Virus record (IMG/VR): IMGVR_UViG_2687453178_000004 | DNA length: 20,000 bases | Source of the DNA: an uncultured virus (IMG/VR IMGVR_UViG_2687453178_000004) | Lineage: Duplodnaviria > Heunggongvirae > Uroviricota > Caudoviricetes | Direction: 5' to 3' (one strand) | Shown: positions 1 through 18,208 of the stretch, piece by piece | How positions within the stretch are numbered: position 1 is the first letter of the stretch | How the letters are laid out: the number at the start of each line of letters is the position of its first letter | Made by a program: the position numbers and the translations under genes | Notes under the pieces: generated by a model | The model's input: the letters and a program-made list of their open reading frames with translations, nothing else | What the model was told of the DNA's origin: nothing | Databases searched by the model: none

Positions 1-617
1 TCTAAATACTCAAGCTTTCCGGTGTGGTGGCAAACCATGCCAAAACTCGACTCGATTCGTTTCTCAAGTCGGTCAATAAACTCCTGCTCTAGTTCTGTAG
101 GTTTATCGCCACGTTCTTCCAGCTCTTTGAGGAAGTCAGCTAATTCATCTTTGTATTGCGTGTAGCACTCAAGCGCCTGAAGAGCGGCAAGCTTATGCAC
201 TTCTAACTTAAATTCGTCATCGACTTGATGAGAGTATTTAACTAGGTTGCCAAATGCTTTAGTCATCAAGCCATGCACGAAAGCGTTGCTATTTCCCTTT
301 GGAGCGCCAGCGCCAGCTCGACGGCCACCGTGTCCATTTTTGGCACTTGATTGATTCGCGGTTTTCTTGCGTTTGATTTTGGTTTTGGGCGGAGTGATCC
401 CTTTGGGTTGTAATTTTTCGCCCTGAACTTCTTCGTTGTTCGCGTTCTGTTCGCTTGGTTTGTTCTCTTTTCTCTGTAACAGTTTGTTATTTAAGTATTT
501 TCTTGCTGTGGAGTAGACTAAACCATTGCGAACACAAAACGTCTTAACGTCAACGCCAGTTTCTTCGTATTCGCTAAGGTATTGTTTTTTAATGCGTTCC
601 CAATTAATTCTCGCCAC
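1..617 (-). CDS. Phage terminase small subunit, 3'-truncated by the window (not in the ORF track)
   Basis: Manual translation from GTG at 617 is open to the edge: MARINWERIKKQYL...CVRNGLVYSTARKYL (HTH-like)...GGRRAGAGAPKGNSNAFVHGL, matching the GAPxGNxNAxxHG motif of small terminases. Confidence 0.8.
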   Translation of the reverse strand, partial: MARINWERIKKQYLSEYEETGVDVKTFCVRNGLVYSTARKYLNNKLLQRKENKPSEQNANNEEVQGEKLQPKGITPPKTKIKRKKTANQSSAKNGHGGRRAGAGAPKGNSNAFVHGLMTKAFGNLVKYSHQVDDEFKLEVHKLAALQALECYTQYKDELADFLKELEERGDKPTELEQEFIDRLEKRIESSFGMVCHHTGKLEYL

Positions 618-2088: not shown

Positions 2089-2424
2089 TTATAAGAACCG
2101 GATGCAGTAGTCCACTAGGGTTTTCTGCAAATCTTGCTTATCACTAATCAAAACCATGGCGTAAACCGTATCTGTCGCATCGTCGTATTGATAGATAAGT
2201 TTGAACCCATCAAAACTAAACTGACGAAAGTGATACACTCCAAGCTGAGTTAGCTCATAACAAGCCGGATATATGGCCGGATTGCTCTCAACGTTCTGCT
2301 CGAACGTCTCAATCAAAGTTTCAATTCTCTCTACTACGCTAGTGGAATCATTCCATTGTGAGTAGTAGTCAATACGTTCTTCTGCTGTGTTAGCGAACGT
2401 TTCCGTATAAACAACATTGGCCAT
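2089..2424 (-). CDS. Type II toxin, RelE/ParE superfamily
   Basis: 111 aa; N-terminal VVYTETF...I..Y, FRQFSFDGFKLIYQYD, C-terminal VLISDKQD; downstream of a Phd-like gene. Confidence 0.8.
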   Translation of the reverse strand: MANVVYTETFANTAEERIDYYSQWNDSTSVVERIETLIETFEQNVESNPAIYPACYELTQLGVYHFRQFSFDGFKLIYQYDDATDTVYAMVLISDKQDLQKTLVDYCIRFL

Positions 2425-2436
2425 CTTATGGTCACC

Positions 2437-2679
2437 TTATGATTTCTTGGCGGCCAACCTCTCCTTAAACGAACTCGATGACATTGTGCGACCTTGGGCT
2501 ACGTCCTTGCTACTGATAGTAACAAGCTTCATCAAGGCTACTGCTTGATCGCGCTTTAGTCGTTCTTCGTATGATTCCACCACATAAATCGGCTTACCGT
2601 TTTGTGTGATCGTCATCGCTTCATCTAGCGGGAGATCGGCTGCATTTTTCTTTAAGTAGCTTACCGTCTCAGTGCGCAT
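2437..2679 (-). CDS. Type II antitoxin, Phd/YefM family
   Basis: MRTETVSYLKKNAA...MTITQNGKPIYVVESYE matches the Phd/YefM N-terminal pattern. Confidence 0.88.
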   Translation of the reverse strand: MRTETVSYLKKNAADLPLDEAMTITQNGKPIYVVESYEERLKRDQAVALMKLVTISSKDVAQGRTMSSSSFKERLAAKKS

Positions 2680-2756
2680 GGTTCTTCCTTCGGTATAAGG
2701 GCGAGTAAACCAGCTAAATTTAAAAATTAGTCTGGGATCATTTGTTTGCGTTACTA

Positions 2757-2806
2757 ACTATACACCAAAACCGAGATTAGTCCAAATTTAAACTAAATTT
2801 AGTTTA
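2757..2806 (-). promoter_or_regulatory. TA promoter (TTGGAC-17-TATAGT, 2785-2757) with an adjacent perfect 18-bp palindrome TAAACTAAATTTAGTTTA (2789-2806), likely the antitoxin operator
   Basis: Read directly; Phd/YefM antitoxins autorepress through promoter palindromes. Confidence 0.7.
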
Positions 2807-3063
2807 CGCCCAACTCGGATTGTTCGATTAAGCGCTCTTTATGCTTATTAACCATAAAAACGACTACTTGAAAGAGCTTTTGCAATAGGCATTGCAAACT
2901 CATTTATGCCCCATTGTTGGTTATCACTGAAGCGAATTAACTTCATCTGGATGAAAGTCTCCCTTGCCGACAGCTATCCAAGGTAGTCGAAGTAAGCTTT
3001 TTAAACTATCCGTCATTTTGCAATTCAATATCCATCACCTCTCATTAACCTATTGATTATCAA

Positions 3064-3092
3064 TTGAACTGTAATTGGAAAGATTGCATGAT
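3064..3092 (+). promoter_or_regulatory. Candidate Pc-like promoter for the cassette array (TTGAAC-17-CATGAT)
   Basis: Correct spacing but a weak -10; lies about 40 bp upstream of the first crossover point. Confidence 0.35.
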
Positions 3093-3117
3093 AGGAGTAT
3101 GGAAGGCGGCTAAAATC

Positions 3118-3136
3118 CGTATAGAAAGCGTTAGCT
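3118..3136 (+). other. Left recombination junction of the cassette array (attI-like or secondary site): CGTATAG-AAAGC-G|TTAGCT
   Basis: GTTAGCT (3130-3136) is the exact reverse complement of AGCTAAC, which opens attC1 (3501-3507). No VCR-like body upstream. Confidence 0.7.
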
Positions 3137-3159
3137 TAAATCATTAACAAGGATGTGTA

Positions 3160-3501
3160 ATGAGAAATAGAAAATGGATATTTGCAGCTATTTTGCTCAT
3201 TGGTGGACCTTCACTATTGCCATTTAGTTTGGAAGTGATATCCCTAATTGAGTTACTAGGCTTTTTGGGGTTATGGACAATTTATTCATCCTACGCTGAA
3301 TACTTGGTGAATCACCCTAGATTCAAAAGAGGTCTGCGTTTAGCCACTAGTTGGGATTTTCAGCCGCAAATGCTGTTCTCTCCGAGTGAACTTAAGGAAT
3401 GTCCCCAGTTAGTTTTTCATATGCTTCCAGTTCAGAGTGTAATAGTTTGGACTTTGAATATTCTGTTTTGGGGTGGTCTGGCTTGGTGCTACATAATTTA
3501 A
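3160..3501 (+). CDS. Cassette 1: hypothetical membrane protein, 113 aa
   Basis: AAGGA RBS; hydrophobic N- and C-terminal segments; the stop codon runs into the inverse core site. Confidence 0.8.
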   Translation: MRNRKWIFAAILLIGGPSLLPFSLEVISLIELLGFLGLWTIYSSYAEYLVNHPRFKRGLRLATSWDFQPQMLFSPSELKECPQLVFHMLPVQSVIVWTLNILFWGGLAWCYII

Positions 3502-3626
3502 GCTAACAAATTGTTCAAGAGGGATTCGCAACGCGTGGCATTTTTACTATGCGTTGGTTTTAGTGATTAAGGTGGCTTGCGGCGGCATCGGTATTGCGTT
3601 GCTCACCCCTTAACAAGGCGTTATGC
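3501..3626 (+). repeat. attC site 1 (Vibrio VCR/VXR-type, 126 bp)
   Basis: AGCTAAC-AAATTGTTCAAGAGGGATTCGCAACGCGTGGCATTTTT...GCGTTGCTCACCCCTTAACAAGGC-GTTATGC. Confidence 0.95.
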
Positions 3627-3714
3627 ATTTTGAGGCGAAGGATGTATGGAAATAGATTTGCATCATCCCATTCTGTATAATGCAGCTTTCATTTAACTTT
3701 CTAGTTAAGTAACC

Positions 3715-4137
3715 ATGAAAACTGATGACATTACTGAAGTATCTTTATCATTTGAGCTATATAACGAGATGAAACAATGGTGTAGTAAACAGAAATTGTT
3801 TACTACATCATATAACCATGGTTGGAAACCTTTTAAAGACGGTCAAGAAATTTTAGTCGACCGTACTTATACCATTAACTTTTGTTTTCAAAGTACAACT
3901 ATTGCAGATAAACATGGACGTCAAAATACCTTCTATAAAATAAAGCGAGGTGGTAGACCTACTACTCGATATGGGCAAAACAGCAGTCCTGAAGATAAGG
4001 AGCGTCTGCGTTCAGAAACTCCTTCGTACGAAGCTATGATTTATCCTGCCTTAACACGTTGTCAATCTCAAATCAGAAAAGTTAAACGAGGTTTAACTTT
4101 AGAAGCTTTGAATGATCCTTCAAATATAGCGTTTTAA
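3715..4137 (+). CDS. Cassette 2: hypothetical protein, 140 aa
   Basis: Single ORF between attC1 and attC2; candidate own promoter TAGATT-17-TATAAT at 3653-3681. Confidence 0.75.
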   Translation: MKTDDITEVSLSFELYNEMKQWCSKQKLFTTSYNHGWKPFKDGQEILVDRTYTINFCFQSTTIADKHGRQNTFYKIKRGGRPTTRYGQNSSPEDKERLRSETPSYEAMIYPALTRCQSQIRKVKRGLTLEALNDPSNIAF

Positions 4138-4171
4138 GCAGTTAATACTGATATGTCTAACCCCAGAAAAT

Positions 4172-4297
4172 GCATAACAAACAATTTAAGAGCGATTCAG
4201 CACGCTTGGCATTTTTGGTTTGAGTTTAGTTTAGTGTTTACGGTGGTCAAATTAGGTGTTGTGGTCGCGTGCTTCACACCTTAACAGGGCGTTATGC
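4172..4297 (+). repeat. attC site 2 (126 bp)
   Basis: GCATAAC-AAACAATTTAAGAGCGATTCAGCACGCTTGGCATTTTT...GCGTGCTTCACACCTTAACAGGGC-GTTATGC. Confidence 0.95.
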
Positions 4298-4341
4298 CAC
4301 ATATTTAGTTTGCCGAGATAGAAAATTAATTAGGTTGTAAA

Positions 4342-5586
4342 ATGAGCAAAGATGACAAGAAAACAGATTTTATCGGCAAGGAAGAAAACAATTTAAAGAC
4401 TTTCTTTGATTTAAATCACATAAAATCGAAATCTGAAAGTGAGTACACGAAAAGGGTTTGGAAAAGCCTTAGCAGCGATAGAGATGATGGAAAGTTTGAC
4501 GATATTTTCTCTGATGTGTTTGAAAGTGTATTTAAAAATATTTCTGCTAAAGTTTCTGATTCAGTAATAAAAGCAGTCGACGATGAGGCAAGTCGTAAGA
4601 AAGTAATCCGAGAGCTGAAGAATCATTACAATAATGAAAGCCTCACATTGATCTTGGGGGCAGGGGTTTCAATGGATCTTGGTTTACCATCATGGGACGA
4701 ATTGCTGCGTAGATTGTTAGCAAAAACGCTTGATAGTGCGGATAAAGAAAGTACTGTGATGGCAGCGATGTTTAATTCAGTTTTTGGTCCAAGTAGCTTA
4801 ATAGCGGCGCGCTACTTGAAACTTCACTTTGAGAAAGAGAAGCATGAAAAAAATGGGAGGAAGTTCCCTTTTGAAACTGAAGTTCGCAAAGCTCTATACG
4901 AGAACTTTAATGAGGTAGAAACGCCTATCTATAAAGCGATTGTACAACTATGTGTATCTCCAGGAAAGAATCCAAGTTTGGATTCTGTTATCACTTACAA
5001 CTACGATGATATTTTGGAAGAAAAGCTTAAAGCGTTGGACTTGGGGATCAAATATAAAAGTATTTACACCTTGGGGATGAATCCGAGAAAAGATGAGCTT
5101 CCAATCTATCATGTACATGGTTATCTTCCTCGTTCTGGAAACGTCACGGATAAGCATGCCGTTATCCTTTCTGATGATAGTTATCATAAGCAGTATATGG
5201 ACCTCTATCACTGGAGTAATTTGGTTCAGATAAACAAGTTTAAGGACTCTAATTGTTTGTTTATTGGGCACTCTTTTTCAGATCCAAATTTAAGACGTCT
5301 TTTAGATGTAGCAAAATCTCAACGTGGGCATGATAAAACCCAACATTATGTAATAAAACGTAGATACAACGTCGATAAAGTAAAAGAGACTCTTAAAGAA
5401 TTACTAGTAAAGGAAAAATTAGTAGATGTACTTAATCATTCAGATGAATTAGATGCAGTTGCATCTGGTTTAGTAAAGACAGTGCATAAATTCGAAGAGA
5501 ATGATGCGATATCTTTTGGTGCCGAGATAATTTGGGTTAACGAATTTTCAGAAATATCAGATATTATCGAGAGCATTCCAAAGTAG
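4342..5586 (+). CDS. Cassette 3: SIR2-family (SIR2_2-like) protein, probable NAD+-degrading anti-phage effector
   Basis: Motifs [35 protein letters not shown] and [16 protein letters not shown]. Confidence 0.9.
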
Positions 5587-5713
5587 CATAACAAAGCATT
5601 TAAGACGGATTCCCAACGCTCGGCATTTTCGGTTTGCTTTGAATTTAGTGTTTACGGCACAATACTTTAAGTGTGGTGGTCTGCGTTGCTCACACGTTAA
5701 CACTGCGTGATGT
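5586..5713 (+). repeat. attC site 3 (128 bp) with a degenerate 3' end
   Basis: GCATAAC-AAAGCATTTAAGACGGATTCCCAACGCTCGGCATTTTC...GCGTTGCTCACACGTTAACACTGC-GTGATGT; GTG replaces GTT at 5707-5709. Confidence 0.88.
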
Positions 5714-5937
5714 TATTGGAAGGCCGTGGTGGAACATCAGTTTAAATTTCGCATCGGAAGTCGGCTCACTTGATGTCCAGTATTAATGGTTACACAGTGT
5801 GACCATAGACTCGCTAAGTCTTCAGGGAAAGAACAGCGTACACACACGTATACACGGTATGTACGCTCTACATGCATTCTTTCACACGCAAATAGACATG
5901 GTTTTTACTGAATACTCAATCTCGGTGGCTGATATTA

Positions 5938-6147
5938 CTATCGTTCCAACATGGAAAGTTTGTTTTCGATATCTTTGGCTATGACTTGCAGCTTGCTAGA
6001 AAGCCGTGATCGAATGATGCACATAAGAATCTGCTTATCTTTTTTGTACCAAGTGTAAAGCGTATTACGGCCTCGCCCCGACTCGTCCTCAAGGTCGGCA
6101 ACTGTTAAACCAAACTGCTTTAAATACTCTGCTAGATCGTATCCCAT
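5938..6147 (-). CDS. Small HTH DNA-binding protein (Cro/XRE-like)
   Basis: LKQFGLTVADLEDESGRGRNTLYTWYK helix-turn-helix pattern. Confidence 0.7.
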   Translation of the reverse strand: MGYDLAEYLKQFGLTVADLEDESGRGRNTLYTWYKKDKQILMCIIRSRLSSKLQVIAKDIENKLSMLER

Positions 6148-6151
6148 AGGC

Positions 6152-6436
6152 TCACACCGTCTTTAGATGCTCATTACACTCTTTAATAACGTCCACCAGC
6201 TTATCTATCGTTAAAGAGCTGGCCGAACGCCCCTCAAATTCAGCAAATAACTCATGCAATACCATGCACTTTGTTTGCTGCTTTAGAAACTTTGCTTCGT
6301 CTAGCATTCGGGTAAGGCGCTTGATTGCCTCTGCCTTGCGAATAACTAACTGAACCGCACTTAACTTAGGCGCACTCAAATAACCGATCACGGCACCTAA
6401 ATCGCGCTCTAATTGCTTAATCTCACTCACGCTCAT
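6152..6436 (-). CDS. Hypothetical phage protein
   Basis: In-operon ORF; ATG 6436 overlaps the end of the upstream gene. Confidence 0.6.
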   Translation of the reverse strand: MSVSEIKQLERDLGAVIGYLSAPKLSAVQLVIRKAEAIKRLTRMLDEAKFLKQQTKCMVLHELFAEFEGRSASSLTIDKLVDVIKECNEHLKTV

Positions 6437-6923
6437 CGGTTTTTGCCTCTTCTTCGATATATTCCGAAACAGTCTCGTTAAAGAACACCGTGAAATCCGC
6501 ACGAAAATCACTAGGAACGTCGCAACCAAGCTCCATAACGTATTCGCAAGCTTCCGAGAACTTAGGGCAATCTGGATACATTAGAATGATTTTAGCCAGT
6601 TCAAAACACGTAATTTCTGCGTTTTTTTGACTGACGGCATGATTAACAAGCGATTGCCAAGCAATGTGATTCATCACTGAGTAATTGCAAAACTGCGGCT
6701 TAGTTTGAATGGCCGCTTTAACTAGAGTCGGCAACGTTCCGGTGCGCTCTGCAATTACGTTCGCCAGAATGGTTTTCATTGATTCGCAATTTAAGTCAAA
6801 CCATAGAGCATCAAGTTCCGCTTGGTCGCTGTAGGCTAGTTGGACGTAAGCGCTTGCAAATTCTGGATTATCAAAACCAAGTACGTCTTGAAAAACAATG
6901 GTCGCTGCGTCAATGGTATTCAC
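6423..6923 (-). CDS. Hypothetical phage protein
   Basis: AAGGAG RBS, GTG start, 166 aa. Confidence 0.7.
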   Translation of the reverse strand: MNTIDAATIVFQDVLGFDNPEFASAYVQLAYSDQAELDALWFDLNCESMKTILANVIAERTGTLPTLVKAAIQTKPQFCNYSVMNHIAWQSLVNHAVSQKNAEITCFELAKIILMYPDCPKFSEACEYVMELGCDVPSDFRADFTVFFNETVSEYIEEEAKTDERE

Positions 6924-6933
6924 TACTTTCTCC

Positions 6934-7326
6934 TTAGCTGTCTTGCTTACTAACTTCGCCTAGTTCGGCCTCTTCCGGTGTAACTGCGTCGATAACAGTT
7001 ATCTGGCCGGACTCTTCAAGCAACTTACTGAGTCGGGCCACTTCTTCTTGTAGTTCTTTGATTTGGCTTTCTTGTTGCTTGGTTCGGAGTAAGTAGTAAT
7101 TCGAGTTAGCGATACCAAAAGAAATGTTTTCCATAACGATGTTCGATACATCCTCATGGTCATGTAGAAGAGCCAAGGCTTTAGCCGCTGCTAAGGAACA
7201 AAGCTCACTAACGCTAACAGGTTGCAGCGTGTTGGCTTCCATCTGTTTAAGTAGTGATCTTGATTTCGAAAGAATCCCCTCTGCTAGTAGCTGTTCTTGC
7301 GTTGACAGTACAATCTCGCGTGTCAT
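6934..7326 (-). CDS. Hypothetical protein with a coiled-coil segment
   Basis: 130-aa ORF containing QQESQIKELQEEVARLSKLLEE. Confidence 0.65.
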   Translation of the reverse strand: MTREIVLSTQEQLLAEGILSKSRSLLKQMEANTLQPVSVSELCSLAAAKALALLHDHEDVSNIVMENISFGIANSNYYLLRTKQQESQIKELQEEVARLSKLLEESGQITVIDAVTPEEAELGEVSKQDS

Positions 7327-7507
7327 AGCTGGATATTTCCTCGTTGTTCTCGTAGATAGTGACAGACTTGTACGAACCGACTAGCTTGGCTAGCCGGATC
7401 ATAAACTCATCAAGGTTTAAGCGTTTCGCATCAGTGAATACGATTTGACGAGCTTGAAGTAATTCGGATCTTTTCTGCTCCGTCGTCTTTTGATTCGTCG
7501 CTTTCAT
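7247..7507 (-). CDS. Hypothetical protein (overlaps both neighbours by about 80 nt)
   Basis: Fills the operon gap; start codon uncertain. Confidence 0.4.
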   Translation of the reverse strand: MKATNQKTTEQKRSELLQARQIVFTDAKRLNLDEFMIRLAKLVGSYKSVTIYENNEEISSYDTRDCTVNARTATSRGDSFEIKITT

Positions 7508-7859
7508 TGTGGTGTTCAGAATCCTTGTATTGGCAATCTTCACAATCGCACTCTGTAAGTTTCACGCTGCTCAAATCCACACCTGCCATCTTTGCAAGAG
7601 CAATAGCTGTTACCTTTGGAAGAAGTTGAGGCATAAGCTCTTTGATCACCTCGCTCAAAGCACAACCGATGTGATCAGCGAGATTATTGTTAACCGTAGG
7701 AAACTGTTCGTGTTTAATGCCTAGACCTACTCTTCCATCATCCTGAATCTCTGGATTAATGGTTAAGGCGATTTTAAAACCGTCCCTTTGCACAAACTCT
7801 TCAAGAAAGTTCATTAGTTCTGGTCGTGTTTTGCTGTTTAGCACTTTTTGGTCGGTCAT
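7431..7859 (-). CDS. Hypothetical protein with a C-terminal CxCxxC motif
   Basis: ATGA coupling with the upstream stop; ECDCEDC motif. Confidence 0.65.
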   Translation of the reverse strand: MTDQKVLNSKTRPELMNFLEEFVQRDGFKIALTINPEIQDDGRVGLGIKHEQFPTVNNNLADHIGCALSEVIKELMPQLLPKVTAIALAKMAGVDLSSVKLTECDCEDCQYKDSEHHNESDESKDDGAEKIRITSSSSNRIH

Positions 7860-8062
7860 TTGTTCATACCTATTTGTTGAATTAGCCACAAAGGGCTTAG
7901 AAGAAAGCCGCTCGTCATAAGCAGCGTTCCAATCAAAAAAATTATGGTCGATGTCTTACTTGTTAACTTTCGATTCATAGAATCATAGAACGACAACACC
8001 GAAATCATAAAAAGAGCGTGACCAACAGAGAAGATCACGAATCCAAACAAAACAACAATCAA
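7856..8062 (-). CDS. Small two-TM membrane protein
   Basis: Two hydrophobic segments; AGGGG RBS, TTG start. Confidence 0.55.
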   Translation of the reverse strand: MIVVLFGFVIFSVGHALFMISVLSFYDSMNRKLTSKTSTIIFLIGTLLMTSGFLLSPLWLIQQIGMNK

Positions 8063-8101
8063 GCCTATTTTCCCCTGTGTTTTGTCTGGTAATACCTTGC
8101 G

Positions 8102-8398
8102 TCACTTTGTGTTGCGCCATTGTGCCATAGCAATAATTTCTTTTGTTGGCGCTAGCTGGTGGCGGCCAAATGGGATTTTGTTTTGTCGCATTATCTCGAT
8201 GACTTTAGGAACTAAGTGGATACTTAGCCCTACTACTCGGTAATGCTCAATCTGTGGGATTGCTCGGCCTAGCTCGAACGCTAGGTACTCAACTGCATCT
8301 TGCTCTGAGCAATGTCTATGGATAGAAAGGAGACGAATAGCTGCGTTAAATCCTATTGCCGCGATTTCATCTCTCGGTGAAACTTTGTTTTTGGTCAT
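8102..8398 (-). CDS. Hypothetical protein, possibly HTH
   Basis: In-operon ORF; YLAFELGRAIPQIEHYR is HTH-like. Confidence 0.6.
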   Translation of the reverse strand: MTKNKVSPRDEIAAIGFNAAIRLLSIHRHCSEQDAVEYLAFELGRAIPQIEHYRVVGLSIHLVPKVIEIMRQNKIPFGRHQLAPTKEIIAMAQWRNTK

Positions 8399-8467
8399 AT
8401 CAGTCATACCTTGCAATATTCATTGAACAAAAATAATTGTATCCGTTCGATGATTATACAAACAAAC

Positions 8468-8926
8468 CTAAATATTGGAATTTATATTTTCAAAAATGTT
8501 GCGTTGCTTCGCGTCCTCTCGCACCAACTCTTCAAAGCTCCATATTCCGGTAAGCTCTCCAATCTGATCGAGCGCTACTAGTGGCAATTTAGACCACGCA
8601 TATTCCACCAGCTCTAAATCTGTACCAACCTTGTTGAAGAATAATTGCTTGCGACTACCTAGCGGATCGTGTCGTACTGGTTCGCCTTCTGGTATTGGGT
8701 TGCCGCCAGTTGCGCCTCGATGGTGAACGGGACAAAGGCCATAACCAAAAAAGTGAGCTAGTGGCTTAACCGCACCTTTCTCACTCGAATGATGAAACTC
8801 AACGTATTCCAACGGTTCAGGCCAATCATTCGGGTGACCAAGCTTATCGCAAGCTATACAACCACAACGTTGAATCACGGCCTGTCCATAGATCTGTTCT
8901 GCCTTTGTCGGTTTGCGACCTTTCAT
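8468..8926 (-). CDS. Ref-like (recombination enhancement) HNH/Zn nuclease
   Basis: MKGRKPTKAE, GCIAC, EFHH and AHFFGYGLCPVHHRG resemble the P1 Ref family; AGGAG RBS before ATG 8926. Confidence 0.75.
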   Translation of the reverse strand: MKGRKPTKAEQIYGQAVIQRCGCIACDKLGHPNDWPEPLEYVEFHHSSEKGAVKPLAHFFGYGLCPVHHRGATGGNPIPEGEPVRHDPLGSRKQLFFNKVGTDLELVEYAWSKLPLVALDQIGELTGIWSFEELVREDAKQRNIFENINSNI

Positions 8927-8951
8927 TGCTCTTCTCCTGTTTTCTAGGCAC

Positions 8952-8984
8952 AAAAAAAGCGCTGCATTCACTGAATGCAACGCT
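8952..8984 (-). terminator. Intrinsic terminator
   Basis: Minus strand reads AGCGTTGCATTCA-g-TGAATGCAGCGC followed by TTTTTTT. Confidence 0.75.
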
Positions 8985-9003
8985 CTAACTCAAAAGCGAT
9001 ACT

Positions 9004-9276
9004 CTAAAGCGTCACTGTTAACGTCTCGGCTTGTTCTTTTAGATCTTCAATCATGGCTCTTGGATAGGAACCAAGCTCCTGAATGTTGATAGGCAGTAAC
9101 GTATCTGCGTCAACTCCTAAGTGATCGGCTATAGCGGCCATTATTTTCTTAGTTGAGTAAGGCTTCATTCTCTGGCTCAGAGCAACTTGCTGATAGCCAG
9201 CTTGCGCAAACACGCCTTTTTTGTAGTAGTGATAAGTGATCAGGTAGTAGGTTAATACTTGGTTCGGATTACTCAT
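9004..9276 (-). CDS. Hypothetical phage protein
   Basis: 90-aa in-operon ORF. Confidence 0.65.
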   Translation of the reverse strand: MSNPNQVLTYYLITYHYYKKGVFAQAGYQQVALSQRMKPYSTKKIMAAIADHLGVDADTLLPINIQELGSYPRAMIEDLKEQAETLTVTL

Positions 9277-9289
9277 CTAATGCGTTCCC

Positions 9290-10102
9290 CTAAATAACTG
9301 CTAATGTCTCTTGGTATTTTTTGAATAGTTCTAACACTCGCCCTTTGGCCGCAAATCGCCCTAACTGTCCACCAGCAAACCATAATCCGGTATCTGATAG
9401 TGAGAGAAGTTGAATTTCTTTCTTGAGCGCGGCTTTAAAGTCCTCAATGAGCACCATCTTAGTGAGAACGGGGAACGTCCCACTATTCACTGTGATTGGT
9501 CTAGTTGGAACGTCATAAGCTTCCACTAGCTCTTTAGCCTTTTGATTGGATAGCCCGTAGTGAATACCCAAACCAGAAACAATCGCATATCCAGCCGGAA
9601 TAAAATTGCGCTCTAACTCGTCAATTCGTCGATGAGCGTCGTTGGCCGTTTCAATGGCCTGTTTGGTCTGCTTCTCCTGTTCAACTAGAGCCTTTGCTTG
9701 CTCAAGTAACCATTCCGCGCTTGTTCGCGGCTGTTCGGTCAATGAATAGGAGCCATGCTTTCGAATGTTTGGTAACACTTCGTGAGTGATCCAACGCTGA
9801 AACGGCTTACCCTTTGGCGCTTGGCTGGAAAGAATCAAGTCATACATACCAGCCTCGTTTATTACCGTAAGCCGTTGATTTAACTCTAACGTCGAGCAGC
9901 TCGACGTTGGAAATTCGGCCATTAATTGCTTTAGCGGCTTCTTATCTTGTTCTGAAACATACCGATTAACCGCATCACGAGCGTTCACAAGGCCAAGCAT
10001 TGCGCCGACCTCGTTCCCGATAAACCAAGGATCGTTATCCATATCAATGATGACGGTCAGATCCCCAAAAATAGGTTTGTTGAATTTGGTTATGTTCATC
10101 AA
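9290..10102 (-). CDS. BRO-N domain phage antirepressor-like protein
   Basis: FNKPIFGDLTVI...PWFIGNEVGAMLG, INEAGMYDLILSS, FQRWITHEVLPNIRKHGSY. Confidence 0.9.
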   Translation of the reverse strand: MMNITKFNKPIFGDLTVIIDMDNDPWFIGNEVGAMLGLVNARDAVNRYVSEQDKKPLKQLMAEFPTSSCSTLELNQRLTVINEAGMYDLILSSQAPKGKPFQRWITHEVLPNIRKHGSYSLTEQPRTSAEWLLEQAKALVEQEKQTKQAIETANDAHRRIDELERNFIPAGYAIVSGLGIHYGLSNQKAKELVEAYDVPTRPITVNSGTFPVLTKMVLIEDFKAALKKEIQLLSLSDTGLWFAGGQLGRFAAKGRVLELFKKYQETLAVI

Positions 10103-10142
10103 CGTAATTCCTTAAAACATGGTTCTTTTGGTCATACCCTGC

Positions 10143-10334
10143 TTACACACGAACACGCACTATTGGCTTAACTTCAGTCATGCAATGAATATCAATAGAG
10201 TCGCCTTGCGGCGGCTCATAACACACGACTTTGAAATCATTCGGATCTACTGGCTTTTTAGGTCTAATGAATTGACTATATCTCTTCCCGTTAAGCTTGA
10301 AATCGTACTGATAAGGCAAGTCTCGTAATTTCAT
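10143..10334 (-). CDS. Hypothetical protein, 63 aa
   Basis: GAGGT RBS, in operon. Confidence 0.6.
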   Translation of the reverse strand: MKLRDLPYQYDFKLNGKRYSQFIRPKKPVDPNDFKVVCYEPPQGDSIDIHCMTEVKPIVRVRV

Positions 10335-10336
10335 GC

Positions 10337-10486
10337 CTACCTCACCAATTTGAGTGATTTCAATCTCGCAACGATTACGCCAGCTAGAAAGTAAATCATC
10401 ACCGTAAATTCGATGCCGAACTTAGCCAGCATGTAGATCGCTAGTGCGCCGTGTATCGCTACTAGAACGGTTTCACTAAAACGCAT
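10337..10486 (-). CDS. Small 49-aa membrane protein (not in the ORF track)
   Basis: AGGTGAG RBS; MRFSETVLVAIHGALAIYMLAKFGIEFTVMIYFLAGVIVARLKSLKLVR*; exactly fills the operon gap. Confidence 0.65.
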   Translation of the reverse strand: MRFSETVLVAIHGALAIYMLAKFGIEFTVMIYFLAGVIVARLKSLKLVR

Positions 10487-10493
10487 AACTCAC

Positions 10494-10799
10494 CTAGAAA
10501 CGAAAACGATGCTTGATTTGTTGAATGTTGTGGAACACTGGCAAGTGAAGCTTCTTTGCGTAAGCAACTTCAGCGAATGCGCCAACGCTAGTTTTCCAGT
10601 TCGGCAAGCAATAAATCGCGTCAACTTCACGAATCATTGCCATTGCTATATCCATGTACCCTTGTTCGCTTAATCCTTCTGGCAACATCAGTGTGTGAAC
10701 GGGAACGTGACCGATGCACTGAATCTTTAGGGCTGCGCGTTTAAATTGCGCTTCGCTATCAGGCACATCGGTAACGCCACCAGCGATATAAATCCTCAT
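10494..10799 (-). CDS. DUF4406 family protein (nucleoside 2-deoxyribosyltransferase-like fold)
   Basis: MRIYIAGGVT, YMDIAMAMIREVDAIYCLPNWKTSVGAFAEVAYAKKL. Confidence 0.85.
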   Translation of the reverse strand: MRIYIAGGVTDVPDSEAQFKRAALKIQCIGHVPVHTLMLPEGLSEQGYMDIAMAMIREVDAIYCLPNWKTSVGAFAEVAYAKKLHLPVFHNIQQIKHRFRF

Positions 10800-11197
10800 C
10801 CCTTAATGCTCTCCATTTCGCGTCTAAGGGCGTTGATTTTTAGCTCAATACGCTCAATTTCTTCGGTACTGGATTCTTTAGTGATTTGATGTTGCAGCTC
10901 CGAAATCTCGCGTGGGATCTCTCCTACTCGCCATAGATAAAAATCAAGCTTTTCGATTTTCTTATGTCGGATAGCTTCTAGCTGGTCTTTGTCTACGAGC
11001 TGGTAGATCTGCGCTAGCATGATTTCAACGTCAGCAATTTCTTCCATCACTTCAGTGATCGAGCCTTTGCCTTGTCGAAAGTGGTGGTACAGGGCAACGG
11101 CCAATTCATTTAGCTCTGAAATGGCTTGTTCAACTTGGCGTCTGCGCCCCATTGTTAACAATACTTGGCAAGCTTTTTGGTCTGGTAATTTGGTCAT
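10796..11197 (-). CDS. MazG-like NTP pyrophosphohydrolase
   Basis: Q...AISELNEL and MEEIADVEIMLAQI motifs. Confidence 0.75.
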   Translation of the reverse strand: MTKLPDQKACQVLLTMGRRRQVEQAISELNELAVALYHHFRQGKGSITEVMEEIADVEIMLAQIYQLVDKDQLEAIRHKKIEKLDFYLWRVGEIPREISELQHQITKESSTEEIERIELKINALRREMESIKG

Positions 11198-11229
11198 TGA
11201 TTGTTGCCTTTTGTTTTGTTTCGAAAACA

Positions 11230-11258
11230 AATATATGATCGAAATTAACGTTTGTAAA
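11230..11258 (-). promoter_or_regulatory. Internal promoter TTTACA-17-TATATT
   Basis: Same hexamers as 1948-1976; adjacent near-palindrome TTGTTTCGAAAACAA. Confidence 0.65.
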
Positions 11259-11259
11259 T

Positions 11260-11625
11260 TTAACAGACCGAAAATTTAGATTCTTCTTTTGCGCGGTGAA
11301 GAGCCTCTAAAGCAACATCAAACGCTTCAATTTCCATTCGCCCGTATGAGTTACACGTATTGCCGATCATGCTAGCCATGCCAGCTAGTGTTTTTAAGTC
11401 CTGTTCTAAGTTCTCACTCAATACTTTGAAGTCTCTTTGCTTCGCTAGCTTGTGAAGGCGAGATACGCTCAAGAATGCGTTGCTGGTGGCTTCTAGGTAA
11501 TTCACTAGCGCTTTAGCAAACTCCTGATCCATTGCTGGCACATCGTTGTTGATTGCGATTTCTTCAAAGCCGTACTCGTGCATTTTGGCGATCAAAATCT
11601 TCATTTGCTGCTTGATATCGTTCAT
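11260..11625 (-). CDS. Hypothetical phage protein
   Basis: ATGA-coupled to the P-like gene. Confidence 0.7.
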   Translation of the reverse strand: MNDIKQQMKILIAKMHEYGFEEIAINNDVPAMDQEFAKALVNYLEATSNAFLSVSRLHKLAKQRDFKVLSENLEQDLKTLAGMASMIGNTCNSYGRMEIEAFDVALEALHRAKEESKFSVC

Positions 11626-12311
11626 CGTTTCATGGCCCTTAGTTGGTCAATTCGATCAGAAAACTCGTGTCGTTCTCCTGAACGTCGATACTCTTCTCGA
11701 ACCTTGTCACTTACCGAAACTCGACTGTGTACTGGTAGCGCTTTTAGCTCATCCTCTGCAAGTCTCAAGCGGCCAGCTCGTTCTTTAGCGTCTGCATCCC
11801 GTAGATACTTGATGAAAAGTTCTAACTCTCCACCAGCTCTAGCTCGTTTCAAATCCCAATCACAATTTTGTGCTACCCATTTCTCGGCTCTCCCCATTGG
11901 CGCACGATTCAAAAATCGGTCATAGGCTTCGCGGTATTCCGCTTCGGTTCGCTGGTTAATCTGAGTCATCAACTCACCAAGCGATGGAGGGAAGCGGTTA
12001 CCGTTGGATAGTCGGTCAAAGCAGATCGCTAGTATCCGGTTAAGTTGCAAATCATTCAGGGTCGAAAGGAAGTTTCCCCATGCCGTAGTAATCACTGCGC
12101 CATTCATCGTGACCCATGTCTTGCCGTACATTTCCGTTAGCGTGTCCCATAGGGCTGTTAGCTTGGGATTCAATCCATTGGCGCTGTTGTTGTACTCGTG
12201 CAAATTTGATTGCTGGCGATTGGTTTGGGTAAATCCGCAACCATTCAGGGAAGATTGACTGATCGGCATTCTCGCCATAACCGATTCCATTGATTTCAAA
12301 TTTCTGTCCAT
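11622..12311 (-). CDS. Replication protein P-like (putative helicase loader)
   Basis: Directly after the initiator; LWDTLTEMYGKTW...W...L...FPPSLGEL pattern; GAGGT RBS. Confidence 0.6.
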   Translation of the reverse strand: MDRNLKSMESVMARMPISQSSLNGCGFTQTNRQQSNLHEYNNSANGLNPKLTALWDTLTEMYGKTWVTMNGAVITTAWGNFLSTLNDLQLNRILAICFDRLSNGNRFPPSLGELMTQINQRTEAEYREAYDRFLNRAPMGRAEKWVAQNCDWDLKRARAGGELELFIKYLRDADAKERAGRLRLAEDELKALPVHSRVSVSDKVREEYRRSGERHEFSDRIDQLRAMKR

Positions 12312-13011
12312 TGTCGATACCTCTTAGATTCGTGTCGTTAAGCAATTCATCTGTCCAGCGTTCGTACTTGATGTAACGTTCTGGATGTAAGCGATCAAAA
12401 CCTTGTTGCTGCGCTGCATTGCGTCGCTTTACGTCTTCAGCGAGCATTCGTGCAAACTCGTAAGGCTCGGCCTTTAGGCGCTTGATAGCTCGCTTAAACT
12501 CATTGAATGCTTGAATCTTCCCAACCTTTCTCATTCCGGCAGTCCAGAAAATTGCAAACGCATCAGAAAGCAATTGGTCTGAATCGTCAGATTCGGACGA
12601 AGTATTTAGATCAGTATTTAGTTTAAGATCAGTATTTAGTAGTGTCGTATTAGCCGGATCTGGCTTTTCCGTAATACGGCTTTCACGGATTAGGCTTTTT
12701 GGATAGTCACTCACTTCATACCAGGTTGAACCGTCAGCCTCTTTGTGGCGAAGGCAAAAGCCACGCTCAATAAGCTCTTTTAGTATTACGTAAACACCAT
12801 CACGCCCCGTTTTCTTCATGGTTCCGGTGGTTACTTTCTCTAAGTGGGACACTTTAACTTCCCAATCATCAGGTTTTGACAACAAGTAACTAAGCAATCC
12901 CATAGCTTGAAAACTCAAACAATGGTCTGCATAAACCTCGTTGCAAATCATGGTGAAGTTGCGACTTGCACGTTTACGCTTGATCGTTGCGTTCTTATTT
13001 GGTTGTGCCAT
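12052..13011 (-). CDS. Phage replication initiator (O-like)
   Basis: NFTMI.N...LSFQAMGLLSYLLSKPDDW winged helix; FAIFW...RKVGK.QA and LHPERYIKYERWTDE; internal repeats. Confidence 0.85.
   Translation of the reverse strand: MAQPNKNATIKRKRASRNFTMICNEVYADHCLSFQAMGLLSYLLSKPDDWEVKVSHLEKVTTGTMKKTGRDGVYVILKELIERGFCLRHKEADGSTWYEVSDYPKSLIRESRITEKPDPANTTLLNTDLKLNTDLNTSSESDDSDQLLSDAFAIFWTAGMRKVGKIQAFNEFKRAIKRLKAEPYEFARMLAEDVKRRNAAQQQGFDRLHPERYIKYERWTDELLNDTNLRGIDNGQKFEINGIGYGENADQSIFPEWLRIYPNQSPAIKFARVQQQRQWIESQANSPMGHANGNVRQDMGHDEWRSDYYGMGKLPFDPE
12601..12703. repeat. Putative phage origin of replication inside the initiator gene
   Basis: AGATCAGTATTTAGT twice (12608, 12626) plus a partial copy at 12601; GGCTTT-containing repeats at 12662, 12678 and 12693. 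Confidence 0.6.
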
Positions 13012-13083
13012 ATAATTACCTCGTCACAGCACTAACATTTGGTGCAAACTTAAAGACCGCCGCCTCACACGGCGGTTTTTTTT
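12987..13083 (+). ncRNA. OOP-like antisense unit: promoter TTGCGT-18-TATAAT (12987-13016), RNA about 13023-13083, terminator 13056-13083
   Basis: Plus-strand promoter over the O start and a plus-strand terminator ACCGCCG-7-CGGCGG-TTTTTTTT, both inside a minus-strand operon; same position as lambda oop. Confidence 0.65.
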
Positions 13084-13085
13084 AC

Positions 13086-13400
13086 TTAAAATTCACTATT
13101 TGTTCGAATGTCTTTGTAGATAGAACTTGCGCGTTCAGCCTGTTCTTCTTCGTTGTATTCGTCTTTAGGTTCAGTCAAACCACACTTTTCAACTAACGCT
13201 TGTCTGAGTGATTCAAGTTTCTCGACTGGCACTCCCAATGCGTTGCTGAGTTCATCGACATCTTTCCACCAGTTGAAACTTGTCGCGCTCAAAACGCAGT
13301 AAGCTCCTAACTCTTCAAGCGTCAAACCACGCTTAAAAATCATCGTTGGAACGACAGCCATGTTGTTTAGAACGAAAAAGCGATTTTCAGGAATGTTCAT
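13086..13400 (-). CDS. Putative winged-HTH protein (cII position)
   Basis: GAGGT RBS; LTLEELGAYCVL...VDELSNALGVPVEKLESLRQALVE. Confidence 0.65.
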   Translation of the reverse strand: MNIPENRFFVLNNMAVVPTMIFKRGLTLEELGAYCVLSATSFNWWKDVDELSNALGVPVEKLESLRQALVEKCGLTEPKDEYNEEEQAERASSIYKDIRTNSEF

Positions 13401-13601
13401 GGTTACCTCTCAATGTGCTTTGGTTGAGCGTGGCGACACTGAGCTATTAGCGCCACAAGTGGGTGGCTGATAGGAAATAGCTCCCACGCTCACCAAAACA
13501 CACTTTTAGGTTATCTACTGTTGAGTGTCGTCAACATTCGATGAATGCAATCATTGATCGTAAACAGCGAGGTTGTCAAATAAAAAATTTTCGACCAATA
13601 A

Positions 13602-13630
13602 TCGACCAAAAAAAAGAATTAGTTTATACT
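13602..13630 (+). promoter_or_regulatory. Candidate repressor promoter TCGACC-17-TATACT; TCGACCAA direct repeat (13591, 13602); palindrome TGTGAATTTCACA just downstream
   Basis: Read directly in the divergent immunity region. Confidence 0.45.
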
Positions 13631-13691
13631 TGGTGTGTGAATTTCACATACATATACAAGCGTAATATTTAAACATCAAACAGGGGGCATT

Positions 13692-14327
13692 ATGTCTATG
13701 TCTGTGCTTGCTCGGAACATTGAGCAAAGGAAACGGGATTTAAACATAACCAAAAGCATCGACTTGGCAAAGAGATCTGGTGTAAGTCGAGCGGTGTTAA
13801 CCAACATCAAATTGAATCCAGAAAAAAGTATCATGCTTGATTCGGCTATCAGGCTAGCAGATGCCCTCGATTGCCGTCTTGAGTGGTTAGCTACTGGTGA
13901 AGGTTCGCCAACGGCTGACGAATACAAAGAGCTTTCTCGCATTGAACTAGGTGCTCCCCTAGTATCATTAAACTCGTTCGTTGACGTTGACCCAGATGAG
14001 TTTTTAAAAACGGGCGTTTCAGAGCGCACTCAACGATTCCCTTGCCCTAGTGGAAACTCAAAGAGTCAATTCGTTGTAAAGGTGAACGACCAAATCAAAA
14101 ACTATCCTGCTGGTGGCTACTTGTACTTTGACATTGATAAATCACCTGTGTCTGGTCAATTGGTTGTAGCAAACACTGGTAACAACGTGGAGATCATGGA
14201 ATACCAATCCGCACACGGTAGGCAGTTTTTGAAATCCATGAATGAAGAGTTACCTCTTGAATTGCGTCTTGTAGAAATCACTGGTCAGAAATTAATTGGC
14301 ACTTTCGCTGCGTATGCGATATTCTAA
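13692..14327 (+). CDS. CI-like phage repressor (XRE HTH plus degenerate S24 domain)
   Basis: DLAKRSGVSRAVLTNI...LADALDCRLEWLATGEG; the C-terminus has S24-like spacing. Confidence 0.88.
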   Translation: MSMSVLARNIEQRKRDLNITKSIDLAKRSGVSRAVLTNIKLNPEKSIMLDSAIRLADALDCRLEWLATGEGSPTADEYKELSRIELGAPLVSLNSFVDVDPDEFLKTGVSERTQRFPCPSGNSKSQFVVKVNDQIKNYPAGGYLYFDIDKSPVSGQLVVANTGNNVEIMEYQSAHGRQFLKSMNEELPLELRLVEITGQKLIGTFAAYAIF

Positions 14328-14372
14328 TTTGTGGTGATAGATATCACTCACAATCAGCTTTTAAAAGGATTT

Positions 14373-14397
14373 CCCTCGCTATGCGAGGGTTTTTTTT
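14373..14397 (+). terminator. Intrinsic terminator after the repressor
   Basis: CCCTCGC-tat-GCGAGGG-TTTTTTTT. Confidence 0.85.
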
Positions 14398-14650
14398 GTC
14401 TAAAATTCCAAATCAATCAAAAACGAAAACAATAATTTCATTTTTTCTCGTTCTCGATCACTTCCAATATTTTCATCGTTAAGTTAATCTTTGCATCGTT
14501 CGGAAACAAACGAACAAAAATAAAACCGCCCATTTCTGAGCGGCTTTATTCACAAGGTATGACCAGACCATTTAATGGTATGACCGTGTTGAAGCGGCGA
14601 CCAAACCGCTACAACGCCGTCATAGTATCACAAAAGATAAGTGAGTAAAC

Positions 14651-15079
14651 ATGACTATTGACGAAGCAAAAATGACTGGCGAAGGAGCTGCCAAAAAAGA
14701 CCCTCAAATGGAACGTGTGACTAACTTCCCTGAGTTTATCGAGCGTGTAGAGGCTGGCTCGATTGCTAACGTTCTTGGTTTAGCCACATCCAACGTGGCG
14801 CTAGCCGTATCTAACTCCGGTAAAGCTGGCGAGATCATCTTAAAGCTAAAACTTTCACCAGCATCTAAAACCGACCCGTCGATTATGAATGTAACCACGG
14901 CGATCACGGTTAAAGAACCGAAAGTAAATTACGGCTCGAAAGTCGAAGACTTCAAATATGAAACCGTGGCGTTTGCTGGCTTCGGTGGCAAGTTGAGTTA
15001 TGACCGCCCAGCCGTTGGCGTCCACAACCAGCTAGAAATTCCGGCTGGCATTAGCAAACTAAGCGTTGGTAAATACTAA
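14651..15079 (+). CDS. Phage protein, YfdP-like partner of DUF2303
   Basis: LATSNVALAVSNSGKAGEIILKL; located immediately upstream of the YfdQ-like gene. Confidence 0.65.
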   Translation: MTIDEAKMTGEGAAKKDPQMERVTNFPEFIERVEAGSIANVLGLATSNVALAVSNSGKAGEIILKLKLSPASKTDPSIMNVTTAITVKEPKVNYGSKVEDFKYETVAFAGFGGKLSYDRPAVGVHNQLEIPAGISKLSVGKY

Positions 15080-15092
15080 GGAGTAAAGAAGA

Positions 15093-15917: not shown

Positions 15918-15982
15918 TGAGTAATGGTTCCCTCACTCACGAGGGAACCAAATCAGATAAGTTGTATTCACAAGGTAGACCA

Positions 15983-17730: not shown

Positions 17731-17924
17731 TTAGTATTGAGCAGTTGCTTGTTAGATATCGTCCTTTTGCAATGCGCGACGGTGAAAACTTCACAAAGCG
17801 CGGCCTATACAACTGGCGTAAAACAAAAGGCTTCCCTGAACCTGTTATCTCTTCTCCACGACTCATTTGGAAAACTGAAGATGTACTCAAATGGGAAAGT
17901 GATCAGGGTTACGACTTTTTATAA
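17715..17924 (+). CDS. AlpA/excisionase-like DNA-binding protein
   Basis: TKRGLYNWRKTKGFPEPV...LIWKTEDVLKWE. Confidence 0.8.
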   Translation: MEEKLISIEQLLVRYRPFAMRDGENFTKRGLYNWRKTKGFPEPVISSPRLIWKTEDVLKWESDQGYDFL

Positions 17925-17967: not shown

Positions 17968-18079
17968 ATTTAGGCAACGGCAAAATCCGTTGTCGGGATT
18001 GAGACCCCGCAATTTAACAGGCGTGATAACGCCAGCTTTACGCTGGTTTTTTATTGCGTGATTCAGTGCGCCCAAATTA

Positions 18080-18156
18080 TGGTGGACTGGATAAGGGCGC
18101 TCCGGCGCGCCGTTTCCTGTTAAGCGGTAGTCTCAACCTTGTTCAGTTCGCCACCA
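18080..18156 (+). ncRNA. C4-like antisense RNA (P1 C4 / P4 CI RNA family)
   Basis: TGGTGG...CCACCA closing stem. Loop sequences TCCTGTTAAG and GTCTCAA are complementary to upstream (17999-18005, 18014-18021) and downstream (18162-18168, 18192-18201) targets. Attenuator-like terminator at about 18032-18053. Confidence 0.85.
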
Positions 18157-18208
18157 GCAGATTGAGACCTCTTGGTGGTGATTAAAAGCTACTTAACAGG
18201 AGGCGACT

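Follow-up and report, generated by a model that had tools for sequence, protein, structure and literature searches.

Structure of the locus

The DNA considered here is a 20,000-nucleotide stretch, called the window throughout, from an uncultured virus (IMG/VR record IMGVR_UViG_2687453178_000004), and it represents a temperate, lambdoid-like Vibrio prophage. Within it lies a short array of integron cassettes led by a non-coding segment, which we call the head (Table 1); integrase, cI-type repressor, replication module and terminase are contiguous with the array on its two sides. An initial annotation had placed three attC recombination sites here, with no integron integrase gene (intI) nearby, and had argued that the prophage carries a hotspot for the capture of cassettes.

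All three attC sites were recovered at the positions first assigned to them, with 80% mean column identity over ~130 columns. The pairing of cassette ends was likewise found to be exact: GTTAGCT (3130-3136) matches AGCTAAC (3501-3507), GTTATGCATTTT (3620-3631) matches AAAATGCATAAC (4167-4178), and GTTATGC (4291-4297) matches GCATAAC (5586-5592). As had been described, each cassette holds one open reading frame (ORF) on the + strand, opposite to the - strand phage genes. The attC1 and attC2 sites are canonical, with the inverse core RYYYAAC and the core GTTRRRY; in attC3 the R'' box GCATAAC is intact and the R' box is degenerate, reading GTGATGT (GCG|TGATGT) instead of GTTRRRY. The three sites lie within 2.2 kb, all on the + strand and without intI, and thus form an attC cluster that has no neighbouring integrase (CALIN).

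Cassettes made by the integron integrase IntI have a hallmark, namely that the bases after G|TT complement the inverse core of the same cassette. This relation was examined in a set of 11 aligned attC sites, the three of the window and eight from the related prophages L006 and L011. All 11 cassettes, among them the three that adjoin a head, begin at G|TT and have a start that complements their own R'', with a mean match of 9.6/12 vs 7.4/12 for 110 non-self pairs; the matching bases always lie 115-127 nt ahead of the next junction G, and cassettes 1 and 2 of the window reach 12/12. A hidden Markov model of the same 11 sites finds dense arrays in Vibrio chromosomes, with E-values down to 1e-40. 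Their consensus bottom-strand fold consists of an L''/L' stem and an inner stem with unpaired bulges, and 4 of its 14 pairs carry compensatory changes.

Among the three cassette proteins, the sole family match belongs to cassette 3, which encodes a SIR2-domain protein (Pfam SIR2_2, E 1.4e-19) with PADLOC matches to ThsA (4.7e-22), LmuA (6.5e-18) and Dsr1 (2.9e-11), making it a candidate anti-phage effector. The protein of cassette 2 has no match in Pfam, PHROG, PADLOC or NCBIfam. Integron cassettes had been described in the initial annotation as rich in defence genes; of the 11 cassettes scanned with PADLOC, only one has a strong defence-family match.

An orphan attIA-type site leads the array

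The head that precedes the cassettes was overlooked in the initial annotation and is, as judged from its sequence, an orphan attIA-type site. The first cassette begins at T3131, exactly at the G|TT of the head, and directly before it the window core reads ...GGCTAAAATCCGTATAGAAAGCG|TTAGC; all three cassettes point away from the head. Across 20 Vibrio loci the conservation of the head stops abruptly on the right at G|TTA, and every locus differs beyond GCG|TTA. Conservation in the alignment of the 20 copies starts near GCCCCATT, with a weakly conserved hairpin ahead of it; a weak TGTCCA motif and a variable hairpin were also seen ~30-60 nt upstream of GCCCCATT.

The last part of the head was compared with the true attIA sites of three genomes, each lying ~220 nt from intIA. 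These sites read ...GGCAAAAGGCCGTATAGAAAGCG|TTAGC in G032, ...GGCAAAAAGCCGTATAGAAAGCG|TTATGC in G252 and ...GTCAAAAAGATGTATAGAAAGCG|TTAGC in G126, where the next letters are |TTAGCT. Between the phage head consensus, CGGCTAAAAGCCGTATAGAAAGCG|TTA, and the G032 site, GGCAAAAGGCCGTATAGAAAGCG|TTA, the last ~35 nt are nearly identical, and over a shorter core the window has ...CCGTATAGAAAGCG|TTAGC where G032 has ...GCCGTATAGAAAGCG|TTAGC. The core matches the canonical attIA beside intIA in loci L076, L077 and L078. Using nhmmer, a profile of 21 head copies matched the attIA region of G032 with E 2.6e-6 over profile positions 118-258 (the last 140 positions) and the attIA of G252 with E 5.1e-5 over the last 35 positions. 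A BLAST search of 285 Vibrio genomes, the set used for all genus-wide counts below, gave short, weak core matches (29-38 nt) in 12 genomes, 194-202 nt upstream of an intI start that had been found independently. On the strength of these matches in core, profile and position, the array is headed by an attIA-type site without its integrase, and this explains why the locus is a hotspot.

A true attIA lies directly upstream of, and divergent from, intIA; the window contains no intI in that place, and so no complete integron in which intI adjoins attI. The earlier statement that intI is missing was upheld by tblastn with Vibrio IntIA, where the best E-value was 0.32 in the 20-kb window and 12 related loci and five known loci, included as positive controls, scored 1e-116 or better; taken together, the control loci ranged from E 1e-46 to 0. 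The phage integrase itself has no match to NCBIfam TIGR02249, and its best NCBIfam matches fall far below their cut-offs.

An origin of the left half of the head, or of the small - strand ORF at 2924-3028, as a remnant of intIA was considered and rejected. The ORF is frameshifted in L006 and other copies, and the profile match to real integrons covers only the 140 positions on the attIA side.

An exact 23-nt pattern of the window core has no match in IMG/VR, because the relatives differ there by 1-2 bases. A 41-nt head pattern has none in species-representative genomes, where BLAST within the genus did find heads, and the head has no match among INPHARED phages.

Array turnover among sister prophages

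Array-bearing relatives of the window were collected with the 69-aa gene to the right of the array as an anchor, with a head pattern and with a looser head pattern. The anchor protein is 94-100% identical in 7 IMG/VR proviruses. Four array-bearing prophages were obtained, namely the window, L006, L011 and L109; a further record, L016, holds the same array as L011 and is cut by the contig end inside an attC. Their backbone proteins are 95-100% identical and their flanks 93-99% identical in DNA. The arrays hold three cassettes in the window, four in L006, four in L011 and at least three in L109, and no match between arrays exceeds 146 nt, the size of an attC, so that 14 different cassettes occupy one site. 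Variable cassettes at the same G|TT junction in related prophages are what had been predicted for a cassette-capture hotspot, and disjoint arrays on near-identical backbones are what was found.

The boundaries of the turnover are sharp. Left-flank homology with the window ends at 3133-3136 in 3 of 3 relatives (L006 at 3134, L011 at 3133), at GCG|TTA(G). All four arrays start at the G|TT of the head, and the first cassette start of L109 fits its own R'' by eye. At the other end, the distal junction GC(G/A)|TGAT... stands before the same phage sequence in the three arrays whose end is visible (window, L006 and L011), despite terminal attC bodies that differ between them.

Assembled sequencing runs added to this picture. 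One 48-kb contig of run X3 matches phage flank and head as far as 3133, beyond which come 972 unlike letters. Contigs of X3 and X4 join cassettes 2-3 to the right phage flank, in X4 as one 74-kb contig from 3596 to beyond 6100. The three cassettes of the window are also present in run X2, which belongs to another study, spread over four contigs. The X3 contigs represent a fifth array state with another first cassette, read from contigs rather than from reads; a swap confined to the first position is what attI insertion predicts. Contig cover was missing for cassette 1 (3156-3497) in X3 and X4 and for both phage flanks in X9, and this was not counted as absence. Many contig joints were encountered that might be taken for excision products; they were not read as such, as they link attC copies of other cassettes in the same genomes. 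Depth over attC1 is ~60x that of the flanks in the isolate contig sets, which shows that the organism (organism A) contains many similar attC copies.

Cassettes shared with chromosomal arrays

The kinship with Vibrio chromosomal integrons supposed in the initial annotation is visible in cassette 1, which recurs in chromosomal arrays of other Vibrio species. Its homologs occur in 16 of the 285 genomes with up to 97% amino acid identity, and in five of the six loci fetched they stand between attC sites in dense arrays. For cassette 3, a 92%-identical SIR2 protein followed by an attC was found in Vibrio sp. HI00D65, and X9, a run with the same organism label, has a 1349-nt contig with cassette 3 alone. 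Cassette 2 has no homolog in the 285 genomes at E<=1e-5.

A further case involves a plasmid. On pVIBHAR of V. campbellii (L098, 4149-4713), the first cassette behind the head is the first cassette at the true attIA of G032 (L076, upstream of intIA), with 1 mismatch over the first ~50 nt. The pair apparently shows directly the same cassette in two settings, a plasmid head and a chromosomal attIA.

Distribution of the head on chromosomes, plasmids and other phages

Heads are widespread in the genus. Matches were found in 83 of the 285 genomes at E<=0.01 and in 36 at a best E <1e-10 (BLAST); several genomes carry two copies, and most matches end at the crossover. Both the heads, at 72-86% identity, and the attC sites, at 70-90%, are dispersed repeats in the same genomes. 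Chromosomal heads adjoin unrelated housekeeping genes, sit downstream of glmS or lie inside a large array. No full intI was found beside the head in 10 of 10 chromosomal head loci (20 kb each, one 10.5 kb), and where both coordinates were listed the head and intI are on different contigs or far apart. On the strand of the head, a Vibrio cholerae repeat (VCR)-type attC comes next in 8 of these 10 contexts; for a set of 20 loci only 1.5 kb of downstream sequence was available, and 9 of them show one. In L048 and L052 the first cassette behind the head matches its own R'' 12/12. A link of these heads to the phage genes of the window, or to the same toxin-antitoxin pair, was not seen: tblastn of 30 window proteins against the 10 chromosomal head loci gave no match.

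Several arrangements were noted around individual chromosomal copies. In L072 (G032:C1 1995000-2014999) the head lies at 9868-10015, in the middle of a large chromosomal array ~15 kb from intIA, and comes after a MatE transporter gene and a 114-aa ORF. Tandem heads 0.7-1 kb apart occur in L059, L062, L063 and L065, and also in L019 (7200-8760); in L062 and L019 the cassette that precedes a head ends in the 5' part of an attC only, followed by the upstream sequence of the head. In L071 (9548-9643) a 32-aa fragment resembles the IntIA C-terminus (59% identity, E 6.5e-7) and stands ~320 bp upstream of a head on G032 contig 2 behind which at least 15 cassettes are arrayed; the fragment may be what is left of a decayed integrase.

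The head is also carried by mobile elements. It was found on 50 plasmids (43 from Vibrio, 4 from Photobacterium, 2 from Pseudomonas and 1 from Shewanella), 19 of which are typed as conjugative. Four of these plasmids were opened: a V. alginolyticus plasmid has the head and five attC sites, pVIBHAR has the head and a cassette, and in the other two the VCR-type profile found no attC. Among phages, G287 is a P2-like provirus rated 100% complete, with its array between integrase and repressor (L114, G287:C1 20000-39873; 10811-17679). There six consecutive attC sites come after the head, and beyond a 2.3-kb (776-aa) gene, which would make a 2.6-kb cassette, lies a seventh. G288, a tailed phage fragment, has the head and one cassette next to baseplate genes.

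Prophage backbone and the variable slot

The nearest array-free record, G001, is 97-99% identical to the window over 1-2874 and 5924-17923, and between those matches it has 4.3 kb of small - strand phage genes. Because G001 matches both sides up to these points, the module peculiar to the window is 2875-5923. The same backbone occurs without the array in G001/L007, L008, L009, L010 and L012; against these relatives the left homology breaks at 2874/2875, and on the right it resumes at 5787 with L009/L010 and at 5924 with G001. The Phd/ParE toxin-antitoxin pair adjoining the head belongs to the phage backbone and not to the array, and is also found in array-free relatives.

On the right, the flank at 5709-5930 was considered as a possible conserved tail element of the array and rejected. 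Only its phage part, from ~5786 onward, has homologs (14 of 285 genomes), and the 79 nt of the distal junction itself (5708-5786) have none in the 285 genomes. Since the first 78 nt of the right flank are without homologs, no relative with an empty site was found.

The slot between the toxin-antitoxin pair and the 69-aa gene carries unrelated cargo in sister prophages and is a general moron hotspot. In L012 (7511-9232) it holds a NERD+UvrD helicase (PADLOC PDLC01087, E 2.5e-66), in L009/L010 (L009 9447-12515) a LysR regulator, a hydrolase and a zinc dehydrogenase, and in G001 (L004 980-5275) small phage genes.

Further backbone genes include an anti-repressor and Rha-type genes (Pfam/PHROG). 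Near the integrase, directly upstream of a Rha-family regulator gene (18209-18817), Rfam gathering-level matches at 17974-18158 identify isrK (66.6 bits) and C4 antisense RNA (64.6 bits), a region which we take to resemble the antisense-controlled anti-repressor region of P1/P7. Rfam holds no attC family, and its gathering scan of the window gave only isrK and C4; a permissive Rfam scan of 2680-3200 gave no match.

Table 1. Positions of the array, its head and the surrounding prophage genes in the window
Feature	Position	Strand	Description
terS (small terminase subunit)	3-617	-	Family match
Phd/YefM-ParE toxin-antitoxin pair	2089-2679	-	Pfam ParE_toxin 2.5e-6, PhdYeFM 4.5e-4; phrog_2268 antitoxin 1.6e-20
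Orphan attIA-type head	2875-3130	+	256 bp, non-coding, not a cassette
attIA core	~3096-3130	+	Last ~35 nt of the head, ending ...CCGTATAGAAAGCG; G3130 is the crossover base
Cassette 1	3131-3620	+	ORF 3160-3501, 113 aa, without family match
attC1	~3501-3626	+	R'' AGCTAAC 3501-3507, R' GTTATGC 3620-3626
Cassette 2	3621-4291	+	ORF 3715-4137, 140 aa; attC2 ~4172-4297
Cassette 3	4292-5707	+	ORF 4342-5586, 414-aa SIR2-domain protein; terminal attC3 ~5586-5713
Distal junction (TGATGTTATTGGAAGG...)	5708-5786		Right flank common only to array-bearing prophages
69-aa phage gene	5938-6147	-	First gene right of the variable locus; anchor for finding relatives
Replication initiator	12052-13011		
cI-type repressor	13692-14327		cI/LexA-like
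Phage integrase	18837-20000	-	Pfam Phage_integrase and Arm-DNA-bind_3; ordinary tyrosine recombinase, not an integron integrase

Proposed mechanism

Positions 2875-5786 are probably an integrase-less integron platform, carried as a moron by a temperate Vibrio phage and served in trans by the IntIA of the host. This reading starts from what was observed, namely the anatomy of the locus, its homology to attIA, boundaries that are exact, cassette turnover between relatives and the cassettes common with chromosomal arrays; catalysis by IntIA at the phage site, expression from the head, the timing of loading and transfer in virions would be its further steps. In V. cholerae, incoming cassettes are reported to go almost only to attIA, beside a promoter, through the endogenous SOS-induced IntIA (Vit et al. 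2021, PMC8191803). Service in trans of the phage attIA is proposed because of this preference and because the locus is built like an integron from which intI is missing.

In a lysogen, the IntIA of the chromosomal integron of the host would act in trans on the phage-borne attIA. It would recombine the folded attC of excised cassettes with this site at G3130|T3131, each new cassette entering at position one. Cassettes could be lost in attI x attC events, in attC x attC events, or when similar attC repeats recombine. The degenerate terminal R' box (GTGATGT) would anchor the array in the phage, and it is proposed that the distal junction stays fixed because this box is degenerate; losses at the distal end may proceed through recombination inside attC repeats, as suggested by the last 15-30 nt that terminal attCs share. 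Loading may coincide with prophage induction, since IntIA is SOS-controlled in V. cholerae and the phage repressor is cI/LexA-like, and the array would then leave in virions.

A more tentative proposal concerns the head itself, which may be a portable, integrase-less integron platform that uses whatever IntIA its current host provides. It would then have reached three or more unrelated backbones of temperate or tailed phages, dozens of Vibrionaceae plasmids and many chromosomal sites, possibly with expression signals of its own.

Several results weigh against service of the phage site by a resident IntIA. The single-strand folding energies of the three window attC sites are no better than those of shuffles (z -0.18 to +0.88), and the expected nested stems appear in single folds only for attC2 (bottom strand) and attC1 (top strand), so that the structural case rests on covariation and boundaries and not on energy. 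In the window and L006 the terminal attCs have their last ~15-30 nt in common but differ in their bodies, and for that end recombination inside attC fits better than clean G|TT exchange. The head yielded no convincing conserved sigma-70 promoter; the sole candidate is a 9/12 match at 3088-3116, and the whole region has 7 promoter-like sites against a shuffle mean of 10.9. Of the 36 genomes that match the head strongly, half (18) gave no IntI at E<=1e-60, compared with 181 of 285 that have IntI overall, so a resident IntIA is not always on hand, although incomplete assemblies may hide it. Either the assemblies of these 18 genomes are incomplete, or head-led arrays persist, or arrive ready-made, without IntIA. 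The proposal presumes an intIA in the window's own host.

Alternative explanations

Homologous recombination of the phage module with chromosomal or plasmid arrays, by host RecA or a phage recombinase and with a phage site that is no IntI substrate, could draw its homology from the heads and attC repeats dispersed in the same genomes. It would suit the terminal attCs, which look chimeric with a shared 3' end and different bodies, as well as the half of head-bearing genomes that show no IntI. Such exchange would, however, scatter its breakpoints anywhere across the 250-bp head, whereas left-flank homology ends 3-6 nt from the crossover G in 3 of 3 relatives and each first cassette opens precisely with bases complementary to its own R''. 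A stretch of 120-250 bp at 75-85% homology would, besides, be a poor substrate, and we consider this route unlikely.

The array might instead descend from a one-off illegitimate capture of a chromosomal integron fragment and now be an inert passenger, as the degenerate terminal R' box and the unrelated cargo found at this general mosaic hotspot in other relatives would allow. Four arrays and a fifth variant with the same boundaries on near-identical backbones contradict this; the identical block in all relatives that the initial annotation had named as evidence for such a capture did not appear, the four arrays having no cassette in common. A single capture is thus very improbable.

Movement of the cassettes by the tyrosine integrase of the phage, or by a different phage recombinase, is more doubtful still, even though the window has no tyrosine recombinase besides this integrase. 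The integrase carries an arm-binding domain and does not match the integron-integrase family, the junction keeps the attIA core known from chromosomal integrons, a point in favour of IntIA, and the same head leads arrays on plasmids and chromosomes without this phage.

An assembly artefact, in which repeats joined a phage contig to a superintegron as the initial annotation had cautioned, is scarcely credible: assemblies are indeed interrupted by attC repeats (the end of L016 falls within an attC, and attC sites are break points of the X2-X4 Logan contigs), but both junctions recur in independent records (window, L006/L017/L110, L011/L018/L112 and L109) and in runs of another study (X2); contigs of 28-74 kb pass out of phage genes into the head or from the last cassette into the phage.

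Relation to known systems

The integrase-less platform favoured here can be set beside several described systems. With the Vibrio superintegron (intIA-attIA-VCR) it shares VCR-like attC sites of ~125 nt, the attIA core, the G|TT crossover, at least one common cassette family and a toxin-antitoxin pair next to the array. It differs in having no intIA, in having three cassettes rather than tens to hundreds, and in lying in a phage genome; the sequence upstream of the phage core is only distantly related to the intIA-attIA spacer. A LexA-box-like palindrome was noted by eye in the spacer of L076 and L005, and none like it was seen in the phage head.

Phage-borne integrons and 17 phage CALINs have been described by Qi et al. 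(Qi et al. 2023, PMC9892861), including Shewanella prophage M16-3, in which a CALIN begins with a Shewanella-type attI. M16-3 resembles the window in that an integrase-less array in a prophage is headed by the attI type of the host genus (PMC9892861). Unlike the window phage, which is without intI, M16-3 also holds a complete integron with intI, thought to be cryptic (PMC9892861). The passages of that paper drawn on here show no relatives of M16-3 with other cassettes, whereas here four or five array variants occur on one backbone; moreover, the site here is of the Vibrio attIA type, and its head is also found on other phages, plasmids and chromosomes. The phage family of the window is absent from the phage CALINs listed in the part of the PMC9892861 supplement drawn on here.

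CALINs, single attC sites lacking an integrase (SALINs) and insertion at secondary attG sites have also been described (Cury et al. 2016, PMC4889954; Loot et al. 10.1101/2022.09.11.507474). The window shares with these the attC cluster without a neighbouring integrase and, as proposed, an integrase that acts in trans outside its integron (PMC4889954; 10.1101/2022.09.11.507474). As they are described there, attG sites are unlike attI and attC, whereas the target here is a conserved attIA homolog reused by many cassettes; the phage locus is a platform and not an off-target attG/SALIN insertion. IntegronFinder is described as annotating attI for classes 1-3 only, and because of this limit heads of the present type would go unreported by it.

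The sole INPHARED match to the window is the V. anguillarum 'phage' Va_90-11-286_p16 (MK672802), with one attC at 90% identity, which has been cited as a phage with a Vibrio-type integron (PMC9892861). The record (L005, MK672802.1 25467-41427) differs in holding thrS-infC-rpmI-rplT-intIA and the start of a chromosomal integron; it is a complete integron by housekeeping genes, whereas the window is an integrase-less array amid phage genes. Its gene order is the canonical neighbourhood of the chromosomal Vibrio integron, so phage surveys that count this record would need to establish which DNA was packaged.

Phage CALINs, one of them with its own attI, are thus already in print, and what is added here is the attIA-type head and the head as a widespread mobile platform. 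In the open-access literature no description was found of a dispersed orphan attIA family in Vibrio, which does not imply absence from print, or of cassette turnover among sister prophages.

Biological significance

Vibrio chromosomal integrons hold hundreds of cassettes, many of them now known as anti-phage systems, and the integron itself is immobile. For the cassettes of sedentary integrons, attIA sites on phages and plasmids offer a concrete route to other strains. If the proposal is true, cassettes are loaded by an enzyme of the host onto a vehicle, which afterwards departs from the cell. Surveys that score only intI or attC clusters would overlook what turns some CALINs into active platforms. 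For the lysogen, a swappable first-position cassette near a SIR2 protein would quickly alter what the cell is protected against. If the head is indeed a portable platform, sedentary integrons would not be closed gene stores; their cassettes would pass as a matter of routine to mobile docking sites and would travel between cells in virions and by conjugation, accounting for their sharing across species.

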